The notes beneath the pieces were generated by a model, which made no database searches, had not been told where the DNA came from, and was given only the letters and a program-made list of their open reading frames with translations. Both the position numbers and the translations under genes were made by a program. From contig QHSI01000133.1 of the NCBI GenBank assembly GCA_003221515.1, positions 3,530 through 67,529 of the forward strand: a stretch of 64,000 bases of DNA. The letters run 5' to 3'. Source of the DNA: Candidatus Rokuibacteriota bacterium (lineage in GTDB: Bacteria > Methylomirabilota > Methylomirabilia > Rokubacteriales > CSP1-6). Below, piece after piece: positions 27,858-36,709 of the stretch (its first letter is position 1; each line of letters starts with the position of its first letter).

Positions 27858-29441
27858 CTACAGCAGTCTTATCAATCTTGCGAAATCGGCCTCGACGGCC
27901 TGGCCAACATCGGCCACCTGCTCGGCCGTGAGATCCTCGTCGAGAATCAGCACGACGATCGCCCGGCCGCGCTTGCTCTTTCGCCCGACGTGCATCGAGG
28001 CGATGTTGACGTTCTGCCGGCCCAGCGTCGACCCGATCCGGCCGACCATGCCGGGCCGGTCCTCGTAGGACAGCATGAGGATGTAGCCCTCGGGGACGAA
28101 CTCGACGTCGAAATCGCGCAGCCGCACGACGCGCGGCTGGCCGTCGAAGACGGTGCCGGCGATGATCTTTTGGCCGTCGCGCGTCTGCGTGGTGACCCGC
28201 AGGACGCTCTTGTACCCCGACGCCTCCCCCGCGCGCTCGATGCGGACCTCGACGCCGCGTTCGGCCGCCACCAGCCGTGCGTTGACCAGGTTCACCGGTC
28301 CCGCCATCACCGGGCCGAGGAGCCCGGTCAGGACGGCGCGGGCCAGCAGCTCGGGATCGGCGTCGGCGATCGCCCCGGCCAGGGTGATCTCGACGCTCGC
28401 CAGGTGCCCCGGGTCGAGCTGGACGCTGAACCGGCCGAGCCGCTCCGCGAGCGCCACCCAGGGTCGCAGCTCGGCGACCGCGGTCCGATCGCCGACCGGG
28501 ATGTTGACCGCGTGCTCGACCAGCTCACCGTCGCGGAACGCGACGAGCTGGCGCGCGACGTCGACCGCGACGTTGACCTGCGCCTCGCTGGAGTTGGCGC
28601 CGAGGTGCGGGGTGACGACCACCCGCGGGTGCTGGATCAGCCGGCGGAGCGTCTCGCTCTGAGGCGGCTCCTCGCTCCAGACGTCGATGGCCGCGCCGGC
28701 GACCTGGCCGCTCTCCAGCGCGGCGAGGAGATCGGCTTCGTTGACGATCCCGCCCCGCGCGCAGTTCACCAGCCGCACCCCGCGCTTGGTCAGCGCGAGC
28801 TCGCGCGCGGTCAGCATGTTGTCGGTCTCCTGCGTGAGCGGCACGTGCACGGTGATGACGTCGGACTGGCGCAGGAGCGTCTCGAAGTCGGTGAGGCGTG
28901 CCCCCAGGTCTTTGGCGCGGTTCTCCGAGACGTAGGGATCGTAGACGATCAGCTCAGCGTCGAAGGCCCGCAAGCGCGCGGCGACCCGCGAGCCGACCTT
29001 GCCGAGCCCCACGATGCCGACCGTCTTGCGCAGGAGCTCCACGCCGTAGATCGCGCGGCTCCACTCGAGCGACTTGAGTCGAGCGTGAGCGTCGGGGATG
29101 CGCCGCACCAGCGCCAGCAGCATGCCCACCGTGTGCTCGGCCGCCGACACCACGTTCCCGTACGGTGCGTTGCACACGATGATCCCGCGTCGCGAGCACG
29201 CCTCGACGTCGACGTTGTCGATCCCGACGCCGGCGCGTCCGATGATGCGGAGGCGCGGCGCGTGGTCCAGCAGCTCGGCGGTGACCGCGGTGCCCGAGCG
29301 GGTGATCAGCCCGTCGTAGTCGTTGACGCGGGCGTACAGCGTCTCGAGGGACGGGCGGGCGAGCTCGTCGACCTCGACGCCGCGCTCGCGGAGATAGGCG
29401 ATGCCCTCCGGCGCGATCGCCTCGACGACGAGGATCCGCAC
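27858..29441 (-). CDS. serA: D-3-phosphoglycerate dehydrogenase (with ASB and ACT domains)
   Basis: In-frame part of ORF 27858..30935 from GTG 29441; NAD-binding GIVGLGKVGSRVA, catalytic RGG...H region, C-terminal ACT domain; ~527 aa. Confidence 0.9.
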   Translation of the reverse strand: MRILVVEAIAPEGIAYLRERGVEVDELARPSLETLYARVNDYDGLITRSGTAVTAELLDHAPRLRIIGRAGVGIDNVDVEACSRRGIIVCNAPYGNVVSAAEHTVGMLLALVRRIPDAHARLKSLEWSRAIYGVELLRKTVGIVGLGKVGSRVAARLRAFDAELIVYDPYVSENRAKDLGARLTDFETLLRQSDVITVHVPLTQETDNMLTARELALTKRGVRLVNCARGGIVNEADLLAALESGQVAGAAIDVWSEEPPQSETLRRLIQHPRVVVTPHLGANSSEAQVNVAVDVARQLVAFRDGELVEHAVNIPVGDRTAVAELRPWVALAERLGRFSVQLDPGHLASVEITLAGAIADADPELLARAVLTGLLGPVMAGPVNLVNARLVAAERGVEVRIERAGEASGYKSVLRVTTQTRDGQKIIAGTVFDGQPRVVRLRDFDVEFVPEGYILMLSYEDRPGMVGRIGSTLGRQNVNIASMHVGRKSKRGRAIVVLILDEDLTAEQVADVGQAVEADFARLIRLL

Positions 29442-30211: not shown

Positions 30212-33200
30212 TTACCCGAAGTCGTGTGAGGGGACGTGATGGCCGAGGGCTGGCAGGCTCCGCACCGTGTTCGCGCGGACGGAGATGACCCCGTCCTGCC
30301 GCTGCGCGATCCCCGTCACCAGAAGGTATGGCTCGGCCACCAGCGCGACACGATGGCGCGCGAAAATCGGCGGCGTCACGATCACGTTCGCGATCCCCGT
30401 CTCGTCCTCCAGGGAAAGGAAGACGAAGCCCTTCGCGGTGCCCGGCCGCTGGCGAACGATGACGCTGCCCGCCACCTGGACTCTGGCGCCGTCCTCCACG
30501 CCGGCCAGCTCGCGCGCGCTCACCACCCCCAAGCGCCGGAGCGACGCGCGGCGCAGCGCCATCGGATGGCGGCCGAGCGTCACACCCGTGCCGGCGTAAT
30601 CGGCGGCGAGGCGCTCGATGTCCGTCATCTCGGTCAACGGGCTGGGCTCGCGCGGCGGATCCGTGAACAACGGGCCGGGATCCGACACCGCCGCCGCCCA
30701 GAGGTTGGCCCGGCGGCTCCCGCCGAGCGGCGCGAGCGCGCCGATGGCCGCGAGCGTCTCCAGTTCGTCCCGCCCGAGCTCGGCCCGGCGCGCGAGGTCG
30801 TGGACGGACGCGAATGGCCGCGCCTCGCGCGCCCGCACGATCGCACGCGCCGCCCGCGCGCGCAGGCCCTTCACGTACCGTAACCCCAGCCGCACCACGA
30901 CGGCGCCGTCGGCGCGCTCGAGCACGCACAACCACGGGGAGCGCGTGACGTCGATCGGCAGGATCCGCAGGCCGTGGCGCTGCGCGTCCTTCACGATGGT
31001 CGCCGGGTGATAGAACCCCATCGGCTGGTTGTTGAGGAGCGCCGCGTAGAACGCCGCCGGATGGTGGACGCGCAGGTACGCACTCGCGTAGGCGAGCAGC
31101 GCAAAGCTGGAGGCGTGCGAGTTGTGGACGACCAGGTCGTTCGCGAGGAAGTTGTGATCTCCCTCGATATGGAGGTCATACGTTTCCTGGATCCCGACGG
31201 GATCGATGGATACGATTCGATCCCAGTACAGATCAGATTCCGCCAGGCGGCCCAGCTCTGGCGAGTCGAAGTACCGAGCCAGCCGAGCAATGACCCAGCG
31301 ACGATATCCTTGCTTCGACGCATCCGGAGTCACGAGTGCACGCAAGGCGAGCTTCGCCCCCTGACCGAGCTCATCCCAGGTGACGCCTCGATGCTTGCGC
31401 TCACGATCGATGAGGGTTTTGACCGCGACCGGAACGACGTCATGGGATGAGCGTCCCCAAGCGCCTGTCAGCGAGAGATCCTTGGCCATCTGCTGCTTTC
31501 GACCATCCAGAAACCGGCGCGCGACTCGATGGTAGAAGCGCCGCAAATTCCCCTGGCCGGTGACGGTCACGACGAAGCTGGCGACGCGCCGCCCTCGATA
31601 CGGGTGAGTGCGCGAATACAGACGCGACACGATCCCGAGCCCAAGCAGGAGATGTTGGACGTCTTCGGCCAGGCGACGAGAAACCGTGTCGTACGACGCG
31701 TGACCCGTCCGTGACAGAGAACCATCGCCTTCCCATAAACGAGCGAGCAGCAACGCCTGATCGGCGGCGCAAAGCTCGAACACTTCCTCGGGCAATCGTT
31801 TCGCCCGCGCCGTGGCGCCCCAGAGCCCGAGTTTTCGGGCCCACTGGACGGCTCCGATCGGCGCCGACGCGCCGTTGCGACGGACGTGCACGCTGTAGCA
31901 GCTGCGGTGGCGAGCGACGGTCGCTCGCGTATTGGCAAATTGCTGCACAGCCTCCACGAACTCGTCACGATACTGAGCGTCCGTCGTGTAGAAATAGAAC
32001 GTGCTCGGGTGGCACAGCTTGCCTTCGGCGATCAGGTCGGCAAGCACGATCAGCTGGTAACGAGGCCAGCGCCGACGCCCCAGCGTGGGGAGCGTACGGG
32101 CTGCAGCAATACGGTCGCCCGCCCTGAGACTCACCAGGGCGCGCCAGCCCTGCATCGTGAGCAGTGGATGCTCGGCGGTCGCCACGATCTCTCGACCAAG
32201 CGCCGTACGAACGCGATAGACCATCCGGCGTCCGCTCGGCGTGGCCGCGAGCACGCGGCGCTTCTGCAGCCTCATGTTCGCGTCGCAGGCGAGCGTGCTC
32301 TCGACACGTACCCGGCCGCTCACGATGTCCTCGATCGCGGCCCAACGTCCCCGGTCGGCATCGATCACGCGCGTCTCGCCGACCACACATTCCGGGAACC
32401 CGTACAGCGCGAACGCGGTGATGGAGCGCACGATCTCTTCAGCGGCGTCGCCGTGGATGCCCTGGCGCGCCATGCCCGCGCGCAGCTTCGTCTCCACCTC
32501 GGCCATGAGCCGCTCGCTGCGCTTGAAGCCGAACGCCCGCCGGAGCTCCTCGGCCTCCGTCGCGGTGAAGCCGGCCGTCACCATCGCCATCCGCAGCAAC
32601 TGCTCCTGGAACAGCGGGACGCCGAGCGTGCGGCGGAGGATGGGCTCCAGGCTCGGGTGCGGGTACGTCACCGGCTCGCGCCCGCGCCGGCGGTTGATGT
32701 AGGGATGGACCATGTCGCCCACGATCGGTCCGGGGCGGATGATCGCGACCTGCACGACGAGGTCGTAGAATCGCTCGGGGCGGACGCGCGGGAGCGTCGC
32801 CATCTGCGCGCGGCTCTCGACCTGGAACACGCCGATGGTGTCGGCCTCTTGCAGGCTCCGATAAACGGCCGGATCGTCCGGGGGCAGCCGCGCCAGATCT
32901 ACCTCGCCGCCGGATTCGCGGACGAGCGTCAGCGAATCCTGGAGCACCGACATCATCCCGAGCCCCAGCAGATCCACCTTGACGATACCGAGCGCCGCGC
33001 AGTCGTCCTTGTCCCACTGCACGACGACGCGCCCCGGCATCGTCGCCGGCTCGAGCGGCACCACGTCGTCGAGCCGGCCCGCGGCGATGACCATGCCTCC
33101 CGAGTGCTGGCCGAGGTGGCGCGGCAGATCCTGGATCCGCGTCCAGAGAGCGGCGAAGCGCCGGATGCGCGGGGAGCTCGGATCGCAGCCGGCCTCCGGG

Positions 33201-34585
33201 AGATGCTTCGTCAGGAGCTCGTTCGGATCCTGATAGCCCCAGTTCGCGACGAGCTGGGCGAGCCGGTCCCGCATGTCGCCCGGAAGCCCGAGCGCCTGGC
33301 CGACTTCGCGGGCGGCGCTCCGGCCTCGATAAGAAATCACGTTGGCGGTCATCCCAGCGCCGAGGCGACCGTACCGCCGATAGACGTGCTGGATGACCGC
33401 TTCTCGGCGCTCACCGCTCGGCAGATCCAGATCGATATCAGGCCATTCACCCCGCGCTTCGCTGAGAAAGCGTTCGAACAGCAGCTCCATGCCGACCGGA
33501 TCCACCGCGGTGATGCCGAGGGCGTAGCAGACCGCGCTGTTGGCCGCCGAGCCGCGGCCCTGCACGAGGATGTCGTGGGTCCGGCAGTGCTCGACGATGT
33601 CCCACACGATCAGGAAGTAGCCCGCGAGATCGAGCCGCCCGATGAGCTCGAGCTCGTGAGCGACCTGACGGCGCGCGCGCGCGGCCAGCGGGCCCGTGCC
33701 ATAGCGCGCGCCCACACCGCGCCGGGTCAGCTCGCGCAGGTAGCCGAGCGGCGTCTGGCCCGGCGGCAGCGGAAACTCCGGGAACCGGTACCCGAGATCC
33801 TTCAGCGTGAAGGCCAGCCGCAGCGCCAGCTCACCGCTGTTGGCGAGCGCGTCGGGAAGATCACGGAAGAGCTGCGTCATCTCGACCCCGCCCTTCAAGA
33901 CGCGCTCGCCGTTGGCCAGCAGCCGGCGGCCGGCGCGATCGAGATCGGTCTTCTCGCGGATGCACGTGAAGACGTCGGCGAGCGGACGGCCCTCCGGGCG
34001 CGCGAAGAGCGGCTGGTTGGAGGCGACGAGCGGCACGCCGGCTCCCCGGCCCAGCGCCACCAGCGCCTGAAGCATCGCCTCCTGCTCGCGGAGGAAGTGT
34101 CGCTGGACCTCGACGAAGCAGCTCGAACGCCCAAAGATTGCCACGAGGCGGTCCAGGCACGCCCGGGCGCCCTCGCCGTCGCCGGCGGCGAGCCGCCGCG
34201 CGAGCGGACCGCGAGCTCCCCCGGTGAGACACACGAGTCCAGCGGCGTACGGCTCGAGGTCGTCGAGCGTGGTCGCGGCGGCGCCCTTGGGGGCACCGAG
34301 CTTCATTCGTGTGATCAGCCGGCAGAGGTTCTGATATCCCTCGCGATCCTCCACCAGCAGGGGTAGCCGCGAGCCGTCGGCGAGCGTGATCTCGCTGCCG
34401 ACGATCGGCTTCACCCCCGCGTTCAGAGCCGCGCCGGCTAGCCGAGCCGCTCCGTACACGCCGTCGCGATCGACCAGGGCGACCGCCGGCATGTCGAGCC
34501 GAGCCGCCTCGGCAGCGAACGCCTCGGGATGCTCGGCGCCCTCGAGGAACGAGAACGCCGACTGCGCGTGGAGCTCGATGAACAT
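30212..34585 (-). CDS. dnaE2: error-prone DNA polymerase DnaE2 (ImuC), interrupted by an in-frame intein
   Basis: ORF 30212..34585, 1457 aa; PHP domain N-terminus MFIELHAQSAFSFLEGAEHPE; Pol III alpha core; 1034 aa once the intein is removed; downstream of imuA-imuB. Confidence 0.9.
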   Translation of the reverse strand: MFIELHAQSAFSFLEGAEHPEAFAAEAARLDMPAVALVDRDGVYGAARLAGAALNAGVKPIVGSEITLADGSRLPLLVEDREGYQNLCRLITRMKLGAPKGAAATTLDDLEPYAAGLVCLTGGARGPLARRLAAGDGEGARACLDRLVAIFGRSSCFVEVQRHFLREQEAMLQALVALGRGAGVPLVASNQPLFARPEGRPLADVFTCIREKTDLDRAGRRLLANGERVLKGGVEMTQLFRDLPDALANSGELALRLAFTLKDLGYRFPEFPLPPGQTPLGYLRELTRRGVGARYGTGPLAARARRQVAHELELIGRLDLAGYFLIVWDIVEHCRTHDILVQGRGSAANSAVCYALGITAVDPVGMELLFERFLSEARGEWPDIDLDLPSGERREAVIQHVYRRYGRLGAGMTANVISYRGRSAAREVGQALGLPGDMRDRLAQLVANWGYQDPNELLTKHLPEAGCDPSSPRIRRFAALWTRIQDLPRHLGQHSGGMVIAAGRLDDVVPLEPATMPGRVVVQWDKDDCAALGIVKVDLLGLGMMSVLQDSLTLVRESGGEVDLARLPPDDPAVYRSLQEADTIGVFQVESRAQMATLPRVRPERFYDLVVQVAIIRPGPIVGDMVHPYINRRRGREPVTYPHPSLEPILRRTLGVPLFQEQLLRMAMVTAGFTATEAEELRRAFGFKRSERLMAEVETKLRAGMARQGIHGDAAEEIVRSITAFALYGFPECVVGETRVIDADRGRWAAIEDIVSGRVRVESTLACDANMRLQKRRVLAATPSGRRMVYRVRTALGREIVATAEHPLLTMQGWRALVSLRAGDRIAAARTLPTLGRRRWPRYQLIVLADLIAEGKLCHPSTFYFYTTDAQYRDEFVEAVQQFANTRATVARHRSCYSVHVRRNGASAPIGAVQWARKLGLWGATARAKRLPEEVFELCAADQALLLARLWEGDGSLSRTGHASYDTVSRRLAEDVQHLLLGLGIVSRLYSRTHPYRGRRVASFVVTVTGQGNLRRFYHRVARRFLDGRKQQMAKDLSLTGAWGRSSHDVVPVAVKTLIDRERKHRGVTWDELGQGAKLALRALVTPDASKQGYRRWVIARLARYFDSPELGRLAESDLYWDRIVSIDPVGIQETYDLHIEGDHNFLANDLVVHNSHASSFALLAYASAYLRVHHPAAFYAALLNNQPMGFYHPATIVKDAQRHGLRILPIDVTRSPWLCVLERADGAVVVRLGLRYVKGLRARAARAIVRAREARPFASVHDLARRAELGRDELETLAAIGALAPLGGSRRANLWAAAVSDPGPLFTDPPREPSPLTEMTDIERLAADYAGTGVTLGRHPMALRRASLRRLGVVSARELAGVEDGARVQVAGSVIVRQRPGTAKGFVFLSLEDETGIANVIVTPPIFARHRVALVAEPYLLVTGIAQRQDGVISVRANTVRSLPALGHHVPSHDFG
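31121..32389 (-). mobile_element. 423-aa intein with LAGLIDADG homing-endonuclease domain inside DnaE2
   Basis: Begins with Cys (GFPE|CVVGETRV), block B TAEHPLLT, LAGLIDADG-like LADLIAEGKL and LARLWEGDGS, terminal DLHIEGDHNFLANDLVVHN followed by +1 Ser; splicing would restore the conserved GFPESHASSFA polymerase motif. Confidence 0.85.
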
Positions 34586-34588
34586 AGA

Positions 34589-36058
34589 TCAGTCGTAGAG
34601 GCCGTCGAGGTACCAGTGACCGGTCAGGCGATCGCGCGCGAGCCGACAGAGCGCGCCGTCTCCGAGCGCCACGTCCCACTCGTCACGCGCCCATGCCTCG
34701 GTGTCCCACCACTCGCCCGACGCGCGCCACGGTCCGGCGCACGCGACGACGTGTTGCGCGTCCACCCGCGCCGGCCGCTCGCCCACCACCGCGACGTCCA
34801 CGCGTCGAGCCGGCCGCATCCGCCGCAGCGCCAGCCGAGGCTCCACGTCCCCGCGCGCGGGTGCGTCGGGCTCGGTCGGCGGAGAGAACGCGAGCATCGC
34901 GAAGGCGTCGGGGCGGTGCGAGTCCACGAGGGTGGGCGAGCCCAGACTGTCGGTGCCGACGAGCGCGGCCAGGCGCGCGAGCACGGACACGAGGTCGCGA
35001 ATGGCCGGCACGGGCGGCTGCCAGAGCCCGCCCTGCCCCATCTGGGCCCGGATCGGATGCGCGCTGACCGCGACCCGCGTCACCGGGGCCGGCGGCGGAT
35101 GCGCCTCGAGGTCGAGCCCCACCAGGGCGAGCATCGGCTTGACCTCGCTCATGGGGTACGCGAGCGAGACCACGCGCGCGTGGTGGCCGCCCGAGGCGAG
35201 GCCGAGCCGGATGTCGAGGACGTCGGCGGCGAGCGCGGCCGCCCCGAGTCGCCCGCACAGACGCGTCAGCACGGGCTCGAGCACGACGGTGAGGACCTCG
35301 AGCGACTCGATCTCCCACTCGACCCCTTGCGCCTCTTCCCAGAAGGGCGGCGGAGTCCACGGACGGAACGGCTCGTGGTCACGGCCCAGCGCCTGATCGT
35401 GCGCGCGGAGCCCGGCCGGCCCGAGCCTCATGGTGACTCCTTCTCGAGGCAGCGCCGCCATCTCTCCGAGCGTGCGCACGCCCCACCGCGCGAGGGTCGC
35501 GGCGAGCGGCGGATCGAGATCGAGCACGCCGAGCGGTACTCCGGCGAGCGCCGCGCGCTCACGCCCGGGAGCGACGACCGTCACCGGAACCGATGCGCTC
35601 GCCGCGGCGACACGCGCCGCCGTGCGGCTCCCCGCAACCCCGACGCGCGCGACGAGCCCGACGGTTCGCGCCTGGTGCACGAGACGACGCCCGATCGCCT
35701 CGGGATCGCCGATGAGCCGATCGAGCCCGGCGGTGTCGACGTAGACGATTCCCGCTCCGCCATCCTCGATCCGCGGCGAGACGGCCAGAGCCGCCTCGAG
35801 CAGGGCATGGCGGGCGGCAGCGACGTGCTCCTCGATGTGAGGCCGGGTCACGAGGGTTGGACAGCGGGCGGCGGCTTCGGTCTCCGTCATGCCCGAGCGC
35901 ACGTCTCGCTCACGGGCAGCCGCGTTGGCGTCGGCGAGGATCTTGATGTTCGCGGTCTGGGTGAGGACCGCAAGGGGCTGCTCGCGGAGCGCGGGCTCGC
36001 ATCGCTCGACGGCGGCCGCCGCGAAGTGCGCCACCAGCACGCAGGCGAACCGGCTCAC
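34589..36058 (-). CDS. imuB: ImuB, Y-family DNA polymerase homolog of the mutagenesis cassette
   Basis: In-frame part of ORF 34589..36529 from GTG 36058 (overlaps imuA stop, GTGA); Y-family polymerase fold, position between imuA and dnaE2. Confidence 0.75.
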   Translation of the reverse strand: MSRFACVLVAHFAAAAVERCEPALREQPLAVLTQTANIKILADANAAARERDVRSGMTETEAAARCPTLVTRPHIEEHVAAARHALLEAALAVSPRIEDGGAGIVYVDTAGLDRLIGDPEAIGRRLVHQARTVGLVARVGVAGSRTAARVAAASASVPVTVVAPGRERAALAGVPLGVLDLDPPLAATLARWGVRTLGEMAALPREGVTMRLGPAGLRAHDQALGRDHEPFRPWTPPPFWEEAQGVEWEIESLEVLTVVLEPVLTRLCGRLGAAALAADVLDIRLGLASGGHHARVVSLAYPMSEVKPMLALVGLDLEAHPPPAPVTRVAVSAHPIRAQMGQGGLWQPPVPAIRDLVSVLARLAALVGTDSLGSPTLVDSHRPDAFAMLAFSPPTEPDAPARGDVEPRLALRRMRPARRVDVAVVGERPARVDAQHVVACAGPWRASGEWWDTEAWARDEWDVALGDGALCRLARDRLTGHWYLDGLYD

Positions 36059-36612
36059 GCCCGCCACCAGCGCGACGGCGACTCCGCGGGCGGAGCGTGG
36101 CGCGCGCGGAGCACCGCCGTCGTCGTGCGCACGCGCGCGAGCCGCGTGGGCGCGGGCCCCGGCCCGGCCCACTCGATCGCCTGGCGCCGGGTCTCGATCG
36201 CCAGCGTCGCGCTTGCTCCGGTGAGCCGACGACGTCCGACGATCAGCAGCGCCACGTCGGCGCGCCGGACAGCGAACTTCAGCCGGAACGCGAGCGTCGC
36301 GGGAAGACGCACGACCAGCTCGCCGAGATCCAGCGCGACCAGCGCGAACCCGGGGCAGCGAACGAGCATGTCGACGGCGCGAAGCGCGACGTCGCGGCGA
36401 CCACCGCAGCGCACCCACAGGAGCCGGCGCAGATCGACCCCGGCCTGCGCGGCCGACGCTGGATCGAACGTCTCCTCGGTGTCGACGAGGGCGGCGGTCT
36501 CGCCGCTCTGCGCGACGTCGCGCAGACACGCGACGAGAAGGCTCGTGCGCCCCGACGACGGCCGGCCCACGATCTCGGTGATCTCCCCGCGAGCCGCAGC
36601 CACGCGCTCCAT
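36055..36612 (-). CDS. imuA: ImuA, RecA/SulA-like cell-division-inhibitor-family protein
   Basis: In-frame part of ORF 36055..36684 from ATG 36612; Walker-A-like VGRPSSGRTSLL; first gene of the imuA-imuB-dnaE2 cassette. Confidence 0.7.
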   Translation of the reverse strand: MERVAAARGEITEIVGRPSSGRTSLLVACLRDVAQSGETAALVDTEETFDPASAAQAGVDLRRLLWVRCGGRRDVALRAVDMLVRCPGFALVALDLGELVVRLPATLAFRLKFAVRRADVALLIVGRRRLTGASATLAIETRRQAIEWAGPGPAPTRLARVRTTTAVLRARHAPPAESPSRWWRA

Positions 36613-36680: not shown

Positions 36681-36709
36681 CCACTAGATAGTGGGGTTCA
36701 GGCTCGAAC
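36681..36709. promoter_or_regulatory. two adjacent palindromes upstream of imuA (CCACTA-GA-TAGTGG and GTTC-N6-GAAC): candidate operator
   Basis: Located in the AT-richer divergent region between imuA (start 36612) and the SDR gene (start 36747). Confidence 0.3.

Follow-up and report, generated by a model that had tools for sequence, protein, structure and literature searches.

The dnaE2 (imuC) gene of a soil Candidatus Rokuibacteriota bacterium carries, in frame, a 423-residue intein, and we describe here this element, its relatives and the alleles from which it is missing. The gene lies on the reverse strand of a 64,000-nucleotide stretch (GenBank assembly GCA_003221515.1, contig QHSI01000133.1, positions 3,530 to 67,529; hereafter the window, in whose coordinates positions are given). 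Taken together, the evidence makes it very probable that the element is a true class-1 intein bearing a LAGLIDADG endonuclease, seated in the O-helix of the error-prone polymerase DnaE2, and that it belongs to a DnaE1-derived family that has spread horizontally and is cycling in Rokubacteria. It is thus a conventional class-1 mobile intein in an unreported host paralogue at a known site, and the understanding of inteins is unchanged by it.

A class-1 intein nested in DnaE2

The reading frame at 30212..34585 (-) encodes 1457 residues plus a stop, and residues Cys733 to Asn1155 of its product, 423 in all, map exactly to 31121..32389. The N-side junction reads TAFALYGFPE/CVVGETRV and the C-side junction NDLVVHN/SHASSFALLA, the slash marking the splice point. 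The parts of the gene are as follows, with the basis for each in brackets.

30212..34585 (-): dnaE2 (imuC) precursor reading frame, 1457 residues plus stop (NF004225, Pfam domains)
32390..34585 (-): N-extein, residues 1-732, ending TAFALYGFPE (junction mapping)
31121..32389 (-): intein, 423 residues, Cys1-Asn423 (domain matches, AlphaFold2 model, empty-site orthologue)
32090..32389 (-): Hint N-terminal lobe, intein residues 1-100, with block A Cys1 and block B (aligns to 1mi8 and the Mtu RecA intein)
32156..32179 (-): block B, TAEHPLLT, with Thr71 and His74 (both invariant)
31259..32089 (-): nested LAGLIDADG endonuclease and helical C-terminal extension, residues 101-377 (LAGLIDADG_3, AlphaFold2 model, deletion map)
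32018..32044 (-): LAGLIDADG motif 1, LADLIAEGK, with catalytic Glu122-Gly123 and an unusual Lys124
31718..31747 (-): LAGLIDADG motif 2, LARLWEGDGS, with catalytic Asp222-Gly223
31121..31258 (-): Hint C-terminal lobe, residues 378-423 (residues 376-422 align to the C-terminal part of the Ssp DnaB intein)
31121-31183 (-): blocks F and G, TYDLHIEGDHNFLANDLVVHN
31118..31120 (-): +1 Ser codon TCG, the C-extein nucleophile (aligned to 2hnh and 3e0d)
30212..31120 (-): C-extein, residues 1156-1457 plus stop, starting SHASSFALLA

Profile matches of the segment to Pfam Intein_splicing (PF14890; 1.5e-19) and LAGLIDADG_3 (PF14528; 4e-15) are, at these expectation values, far beyond chance. The insert alone also scores above the cut-offs of the NCBIfam intein N- and C-terminal models (TIGR01445 and TIGR01443). 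Of all NCBIfam models it matches best, at 244 bits, that of mycobacterial DnaB (PRK07773) in its intein part, and among PDB sequences it comes closest to the Ssp DnaB mini-intein (1mi8), along with the Mtu RecA intein. The motifs TAEHPLLT, LADLIAEGK, LARLWEGDGS and HNFLANDLVVHN are all found in it, and the class-1 signature is complete, comprising Cys1, the TxxH of block B (Thr71/His74), Asp405 of block F, His422-Asn423 and Ser+1. Both motifs of a double-motif endonuclease are likewise present, LADLIAEG (E122) and LARLWEGDG (D222), each with its acidic residue followed by Gly. Across 38 aligned sequences, no variation occurs at C1, T71, H74, E122, G123, G223, D405, H422 or N423, and at least 90% keep D222; the intein's Cys35, Cys126 and Cys164 are also conserved. 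From its motifs and profile matches, then, the segment is a class-1 intein with a nested two-motif LAGLIDADG homing endonuclease. Its G+C content of 0.642 is below the 0.712 of the exteins that make up the rest of the gene, and no further intein was found within the 64-kb window.

The predicted structure agrees. An AlphaFold2 model built from the 38 aligned sequences predicts the Hint and LAGLIDADG folds with high confidence (mean predicted local distance difference test score 90, predicted template-modelling score 0.90). Specifically, residues ~1-100 and ~385-423 form a beta-rich Hint domain, between which lie two alpha-beta-beta-alpha-beta-beta-alpha halves, each headed by a LAGLIDADG helix, and then a helical extension (296-384). 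The top Foldseek matches are intein-endonucleases, namely TliVMA (7qss; template-modelling score 0.73), PI-PfuI (1dq3; 0.64), PI-TkoII (2cw7; 0.65) and PI-SceI (1vde_B; 0.52), and the endonuclease part also matches I-DmoI. Against the splicing domains of the RecA and DnaB inteins, the model deviates by a root-mean-square distance (rmsd) of 1.4-1.5 A.

The host is, by its profile matches and gene neighbours, the error-prone polymerase DnaE2/ImuC in a canonical imuA'-imuB-dnaE2 cassette. The NCBIfam model of error-prone DNA polymerase (NF004225) scores 1222 bits against a cut-off of 939 in two stretches that flank the intein, while the DnaE1 equivalog (NF004226) reaches 651 bits on the same protein, below its cut-off of 1002; the exteins contain the Pfam domains PHP, DNA_pol3_alpha, finger, HHH_6 and OB. 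The named relatives come from metagenome-assembled genomes of Candidatus Rokubacteria/Methylomirabilota.

The segment is an in-frame insertion, and taking it out re-creates a conserved motif of the host. Of the 120 database relatives that rank best, 118 extend across the site, and in every one of them it is empty or else occupied at exactly the window's point; the other two, P0069 (995 residues) and P0110 (1033 residues), gave no junction. Intein-less proteins are 1034-1035 residues long with a contiguous YGFPESHASSFALLA (YGFPE-SHASSFALLA), about the length of the window protein minus its intein. In the closest intein-less locus, L065 (GCA_003220435.1), the exteins span 3105 nt as in the window and are 92.8% identical, the 1269-bp intein is cleanly absent without duplication, and the gene order (SDR, imuA', imuB, dnaE2, SDR, small open reading frame, G6PD) matches that of the window. 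The segment is absent from these orthologues and so is not a conserved polymerase region. A sequence-only reading of the window had proposed a 423-residue LAGLIDADG intein in DnaE2 at 31121-32389, quoted its start (GFPE/CVVGETRV), its internal motifs and its end followed by Ser, and expected excision to restore GFPESH. In each of these particulars it was right, to the exact coordinate, and the terminal Asn and +1 Ser on which it leaned are indeed conserved, the +1 residue being Ser at all junctions extracted for this site.

Insertion point, relatives and distribution

Aligned to the solved structures 2hnh and 3e0d, the spliced sequence places the junction between K758 and S759 of Escherichia coli Pol III alpha (Lys815/Ser816 in Taq), within the O-helix of the fingers domain and one residue before His760. 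In Pol III alpha, His760 is the proposed steric gate, while Ser759 packs against the palm and its substitution changes base and sugar selectivity (PMC8485763). The +1 nucleophile of the intein is this active-site Ser and, since the intein splits the O-helix that carries Ser759 and His760, the precursor should be inactive. The window site falls within a part of the Pol III alpha fingers domain already described as an intein hot spot, with several insertion points within 75 residues (PMC4760082).

The point occupied in the window is already in use in DnaE1 and is therefore not new. A full search of 1.84 billion cluster representatives by HMMER, with only the intein as query, returned 468 proteins below 1e-30, and junctions were extracted from the best 150. 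Among these 150, dozens of DnaE1-type proteins carry YGFNK/C...HN/SH(A or S), which is the same insertion point, and DnaB inteins at two other sites rank after them; the named DnaE1-type carriers are Chloroflexota. Sixty fetched DnaE1-type sequences, drawn from dozens of 50%-identity clusters, are occupied there. These DnaE1 inteins resemble that of the window in their junctions (YGFNK/C...HN/SH versus YGFPE/C...HN/SH), in Cys1 and Ser+1, in a Hint plus LAGLIDADG architecture of ~425 residues, and in the shared blocks EGNxCHP, WxGDG and HNFxAN, at 30-43% identity. They differ in that the window's host is the non-essential SOS-type paralogue DnaE2/ImuC, whose inteins form a separate clade.

The cyanobacterial split DnaE intein (Ssp/Npu; point 'a' of PMC4760082) belongs to the same superfamily, sits in the same YGFNKSH motif and is likewise class-1 with Cys1. 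However, the native C-extein of the Npu intein is Cys-Phe-Asn (PMC3585056), so the split site precedes the residue aligned to Gly755, four residues upstream of the window site; further, the split intein is divided over two genes, lacks an endonuclease and has a +1 Cys, whereas the window gene is contiguous and has a +1 Ser. The sequence-only reading had likewise placed the site four residues downstream of the split site, and its suggestion of a different insertion allele stands insofar as the two are distinct, but not as a claim of novelty, the same point being occupied in many DnaE1. By sequence, the nearest experimentally characterised relatives are the DnaB inteins (1mi8, at 2.7e-23, and mycobacterial DnaB, PRK07773), which have the same architecture and, in 1mi8, align through the penultimate His (DIIVH versus DLVVH in the window), but which occupy another host protein and other sites and share just 28-30% identity with the window intein. 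The structural matches TliVMA, PI-PfuI, PI-TkoII and PI-SceI share the two-domain fold of Hint and double LAGLIDADG, but are only 12-19% identical, come from archaeal or yeast hosts, and lack the helical segment 296-384 that the window intein adds. Finally, the Mtu RecA intein (PI-MtuI) also has a host in the SOS/DNA-damage response, and its N-terminal lobe is 37% identical over 97 residues (rmsd 1.4 A); it differs in host and site.

A scan of one genome per species yielded at least 64 loci with the intein, among them several that are DnaE1-type or not resolvable (L051 and L052 from Chloroflexota, the Gemmatimonadaceae fragment L063, and the partial L056, L059 and L060). Among the matches listed, all loci with an N-side junction, L051 excepted, show the DnaE2-type YGFP(E or Q)/C...HN/SH. 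No fewer than 60 species-level genomes have the intein in dnaE2; they belong to Methylomirabilota/Rokubacteria, Steroidobacteraceae and other Gammaproteobacteria, Burkholderiales/Casimicrobiaceae (Betaproteobacteria), Kofleriaceae/Haliangiales (Myxococcota) and Armatimonadota. The element is widespread among metagenome-assembled genomes from soil. Inteins in this polymerase had been called uncommon in the sequence-only reading, which is true of the literature but not of genomes from several phyla: our literature search found no paper on a DnaE2/ImuC intein, and its matches for DnaE2 together with intein were confined to inteins excised before analysis or to 'dnaE2' as a name for the cyanobacterial split gene. 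Hence ImuC/DnaE2, a polymerase of SOS mutagenesis, joins the intein hosts among proteins of DNA metabolism, a role in which none of the searchable papers describes it.

Identity among DnaE2 inteins is 46% or more, and between them and DnaE1 inteins it does not exceed 48%. In a neighbour-joining tree they are monophyletic in 100 of 100 bootstraps and nested within the DnaE1 inteins in 99 of 100, a combination that suggests a single jump between paralogues. If so, an intein family would have crossed from DnaE1 to DnaE2 by way of an active-site motif that both share and strongly conserve. In three otherwise related dnaE2 loci from long-read MFD assemblies (L054, L055 and L061), a frameshift or stop interrupts the intein frame, which could reflect either true pseudogenes or mistakes in the long-read assemblies.

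Signs of homing, proposed mechanism and competing readings

Intein and host differ in their divergence. Across phyla, the intein is 53-65% identical to that of the window and the exteins 43-48%, whereas against the closest Rokubacteria relatives the reverse is seen, with the intein at 77% and the exteins at 89-90%. Synonymous divergence (dS) from the nearest relatives amounts to 1.0-1.4 for the intein and 0.45-0.6 for the exteins. The histories of intein and host are thus decoupled, as would be expected if the intein moves horizontally. Further, within extein clusters that are at least 94% identical, intein lengths of 423, 401, 350, 146 and 0 residues are interspersed. The deletions in shortened alleles all fall inside intein residues 101-386 and nearly all end by residue 378, and the common 146-residue mini-intein lacks 101-377. 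None of them touches the core of the splicing lobes, and the Hint N-lobe is kept in every truncated allele. The interspersed allele states, along with the decoupled divergence, point to an ongoing homing cycle in Rokubacteria. In the comparisons yielding a value, the ratio of nonsynonymous to synonymous divergence (dN/dS) of full-length endonuclease domains is 0.09-0.19, which indicates purifying selection on full-length copies; the exteins, at 0.08-0.38, are by the same measure under purifying selection, which, like the survival of the splicing lobes in relatives whose endonuclease decays, speaks indirectly for protein splicing.

A trace of homing can also be read in the codon of the +1 Ser, which was surveyed in loci L001-L067 and L188-L196 and in empty sites from metagenomes. 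The latter serve as a general codon baseline, there being no Rokubacteria among the matches listed (best 63% identity). The counts are as follows.

All occupied dnaE sites: TCN 54, AGY 3
Unrelated empty DnaE2 sites, metagenomes (among the matches listed): TCN 62, AGY 58
Rokubacteria occupied alleles: TCN 14, AGY 0
Rokubacteria empty alleles: TCN 1, AGY 8

Occupied and unrelated empty sites differ at a Fisher p of ~2e-9, uncorrected for phylogeny, and Rokubacteria occupied and empty alleles at an exact p of ~2e-5, calculated by hand from the counts. The next variable Ser codon, which lies three residues further downstream, tends to switch with that of the +1 Ser, being TCC or TCT in occupied and AGT or AGC in empty alleles, and L065 and L190 are mosaics for the two codons. 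Target-site immunity and co-conversion of flanks are general features of homing elements. Judged by these counts, the +1 codon bias is a DNA-level footprint of homing. Either the endonuclease may disfavour targets with AGY at their centre, so that AGY alleles are immune, or homing may co-convert the flank to the TCN of the donor. The Rokubacteria dnaE2 alleles make up an unusually complete natural series, from full intein through decaying endonuclease and mini-intein to empty site, with exteins more than 94% identical within clusters, and they come with a synonymous codon that marks the homing site. Such a series could lend itself to work, in uncultured soil bacteria, on the dynamics of homing and on how target sites become immune.

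The window copy itself departs from the family beside its first catalytic motif. Its residue 124, right after the catalytic Glu122-Gly123, is Lys (AAG, 32018-32020), where 150 of 156 related DnaE1/DnaE2 inteins (96%) have Asn, as does its near-identical database twin, P0001. This change may mark the onset of endonuclease decay, or it may be neutral; going by their positions, the splicing residues are unaffected by it.

The data themselves show what the element is, where it begins and ends, its insertion point, fold and distribution, its polymorphism and its codon footprint. Beyond these, we propose the following course, the splicing steps of which follow established class-1 chemistry. The 1457-residue precursor, with its Ser759/His760 helix split, would be unable to polymerise. 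Cys1 would undergo an N-S acyl shift, the resulting thioester would be attacked by the hydroxyl of the +1 Ser, and Asn423 would cyclise with the assistance of His422, after which an O-N shift would restore YGFPE-SHASSF and leave a 1034-residue DnaE2 and a free intein. The endonuclease would cut the empty site of intein-less dnaE2 alleles, and repair from an occupied allele would copy the intein in, which is homing. On a longer time scale, the family at the DnaE1 site would have crossed once into DnaE2 and then passed by horizontal transfer between dnaE2 genes in several soil phyla, and in present-day Rokubacteria it would pass through a cycle of gain, endonuclease decay, mini-intein and empty site.

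Several points weigh against this account of a mobile, self-splicing intein. Splicing and cleavage are activities that we infer; dS values above 1, as in the 1.0-1.4 of the intein, are near saturation; the neighbour-joining tree uses identity-based distances and has just two DnaB inteins as its root; the association with codons ignores phylogeny, and its sample of empty Rokubacteria alleles is small (9). Moreover, with Lys at a position of conserved Asn, the endonuclease of the window copy may be impaired. That the intein still splices but is immobile in this genome, its endonuclease inactive or decaying, and remains only because DnaE2 would be destroyed if the loss were imprecise, is a possibility worth keeping in view, if a doubtful one. 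The exchange of Asn for Lys at a 96%-conserved position beside catalytic Glu122 would fit it, as would the partial or whole deletion of the endonuclease in many relatives, from which decay appears common in the family; yet the window copy is full length, has both catalytic acidic residues and no frameshift, and the family-wide endonuclease dN/dS given above speaks for purifying selection on full-length copies. Farther still from the mobile intein that we favour, the segment might be a lineage-specific polymerase domain, a non-splicing Hint domain of the bacterial intein-like (BIL) kind, or an assembly chimera, all of which come to mind a priori, and only so, for a sequence derived from a metagenome. 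BIL domains typically lack the arrangement of a C-terminal His-Asn with a Ser nucleophile. We rejected these readings, and that of a conserved polymerase segment, on the strength of the intein-less syntenic orthologues, of the same architecture in more than 60 independent assemblies and of the canonical His-Asn followed by Ser; with the empty-site alleles already refuting this group of readings and the Hint and LAGLIDADG folds confidently predicted, its probability is close to nil.

A different question is whether the host now uses the intein as a conditional switch, such that splicing in response to stress (redox, DNA damage or single-stranded DNA) licenses an inactive precursor of a mutagenic polymerase post-translationally. 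The insertion splits the steric-gate helix, so that the precursor should be inactive; the host sits in an SOS-type cassette; Cys35, Cys126 and Cys164 are conserved; and conditional splicing is discussed for the Mycobacterium tuberculosis RecA intein (PMC11377839). Close relatives, however, manage without the intein or with mini versions of it, and its distribution is sporadic and horizontally acquired. A selfish element fits this distribution and the allele polymorphism better than a regulator does, and we consider such a switch very unlikely. The wider proposition that the intein is more than a parasite, be it through stress-dependent splicing that licenses the SOS mutasome or, in a modest version, through the AGY +1 codon as a selected 'immunity' allele of dnaE2, strikes us as very improbable too.

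The imuA'-imuB-dnaE2 cassette and its neighbours

The two genes that precede dnaE2 in the cassette are recognised by domain matches and by synteny with L065 and L067.

34589..36058 (-): imuB, Y-family polymerase-like, directly upstream of dnaE2 (Pfam IMS, 7.7e-20)
36055..36612 (-): imuA', RecA-like, first gene of the cassette (Pfam RecA, 1.3e-11)

Relative to L065, the window has one extra gene at ~27858-29440 (-), flanked on one side by the SDR gene that lies downstream of dnaE2 and on the other by the small open reading frame and G6PD; it is serA-like and, by its translation alone, would encode a D-3-phosphoglycerate dehydrogenase with a C-terminal ACT-like region.

Where NCBI names a relative, it uses 'DNA polymerase III subunit alpha' for alleles with the intein and 'error-prone DNA polymerase' for those without. 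The intein thus seems to derail the automated naming of ImuC, and automated surveys of imuABC mutasomes may misclassify the alleles that carry it. Between the window protein and its twin P0001 there are four residue differences (G51H, I61N, G296D and K856N). At residue 61, the window matches the family consensus and P0001 does not, so the differences look like strain variation or mistakes in sequencing one record or the other.

A palindrome, CCACTATCTAGTGG (CCACT-ATCT-AGTGG; 36681-36694, -), lies ~70 nt upstream of where imuA' starts; it is the single such site in the window, where 0.14 would be expected by chance. We know of no LexA motif for the Rokubacteria/Methylomirabilota phylum, and regard this palindrome as a candidate operator for SOS/LexA control of the imuA'-imuB-dnaE2 cassette. 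It is kept in the orthologous Rokubacteria loci L065 and L002 and has the variant form CCACTGTATGTAGTGG in L008, and downstream of it stands a conserved promoter-like pair, CTTGTC...TGATTAG.

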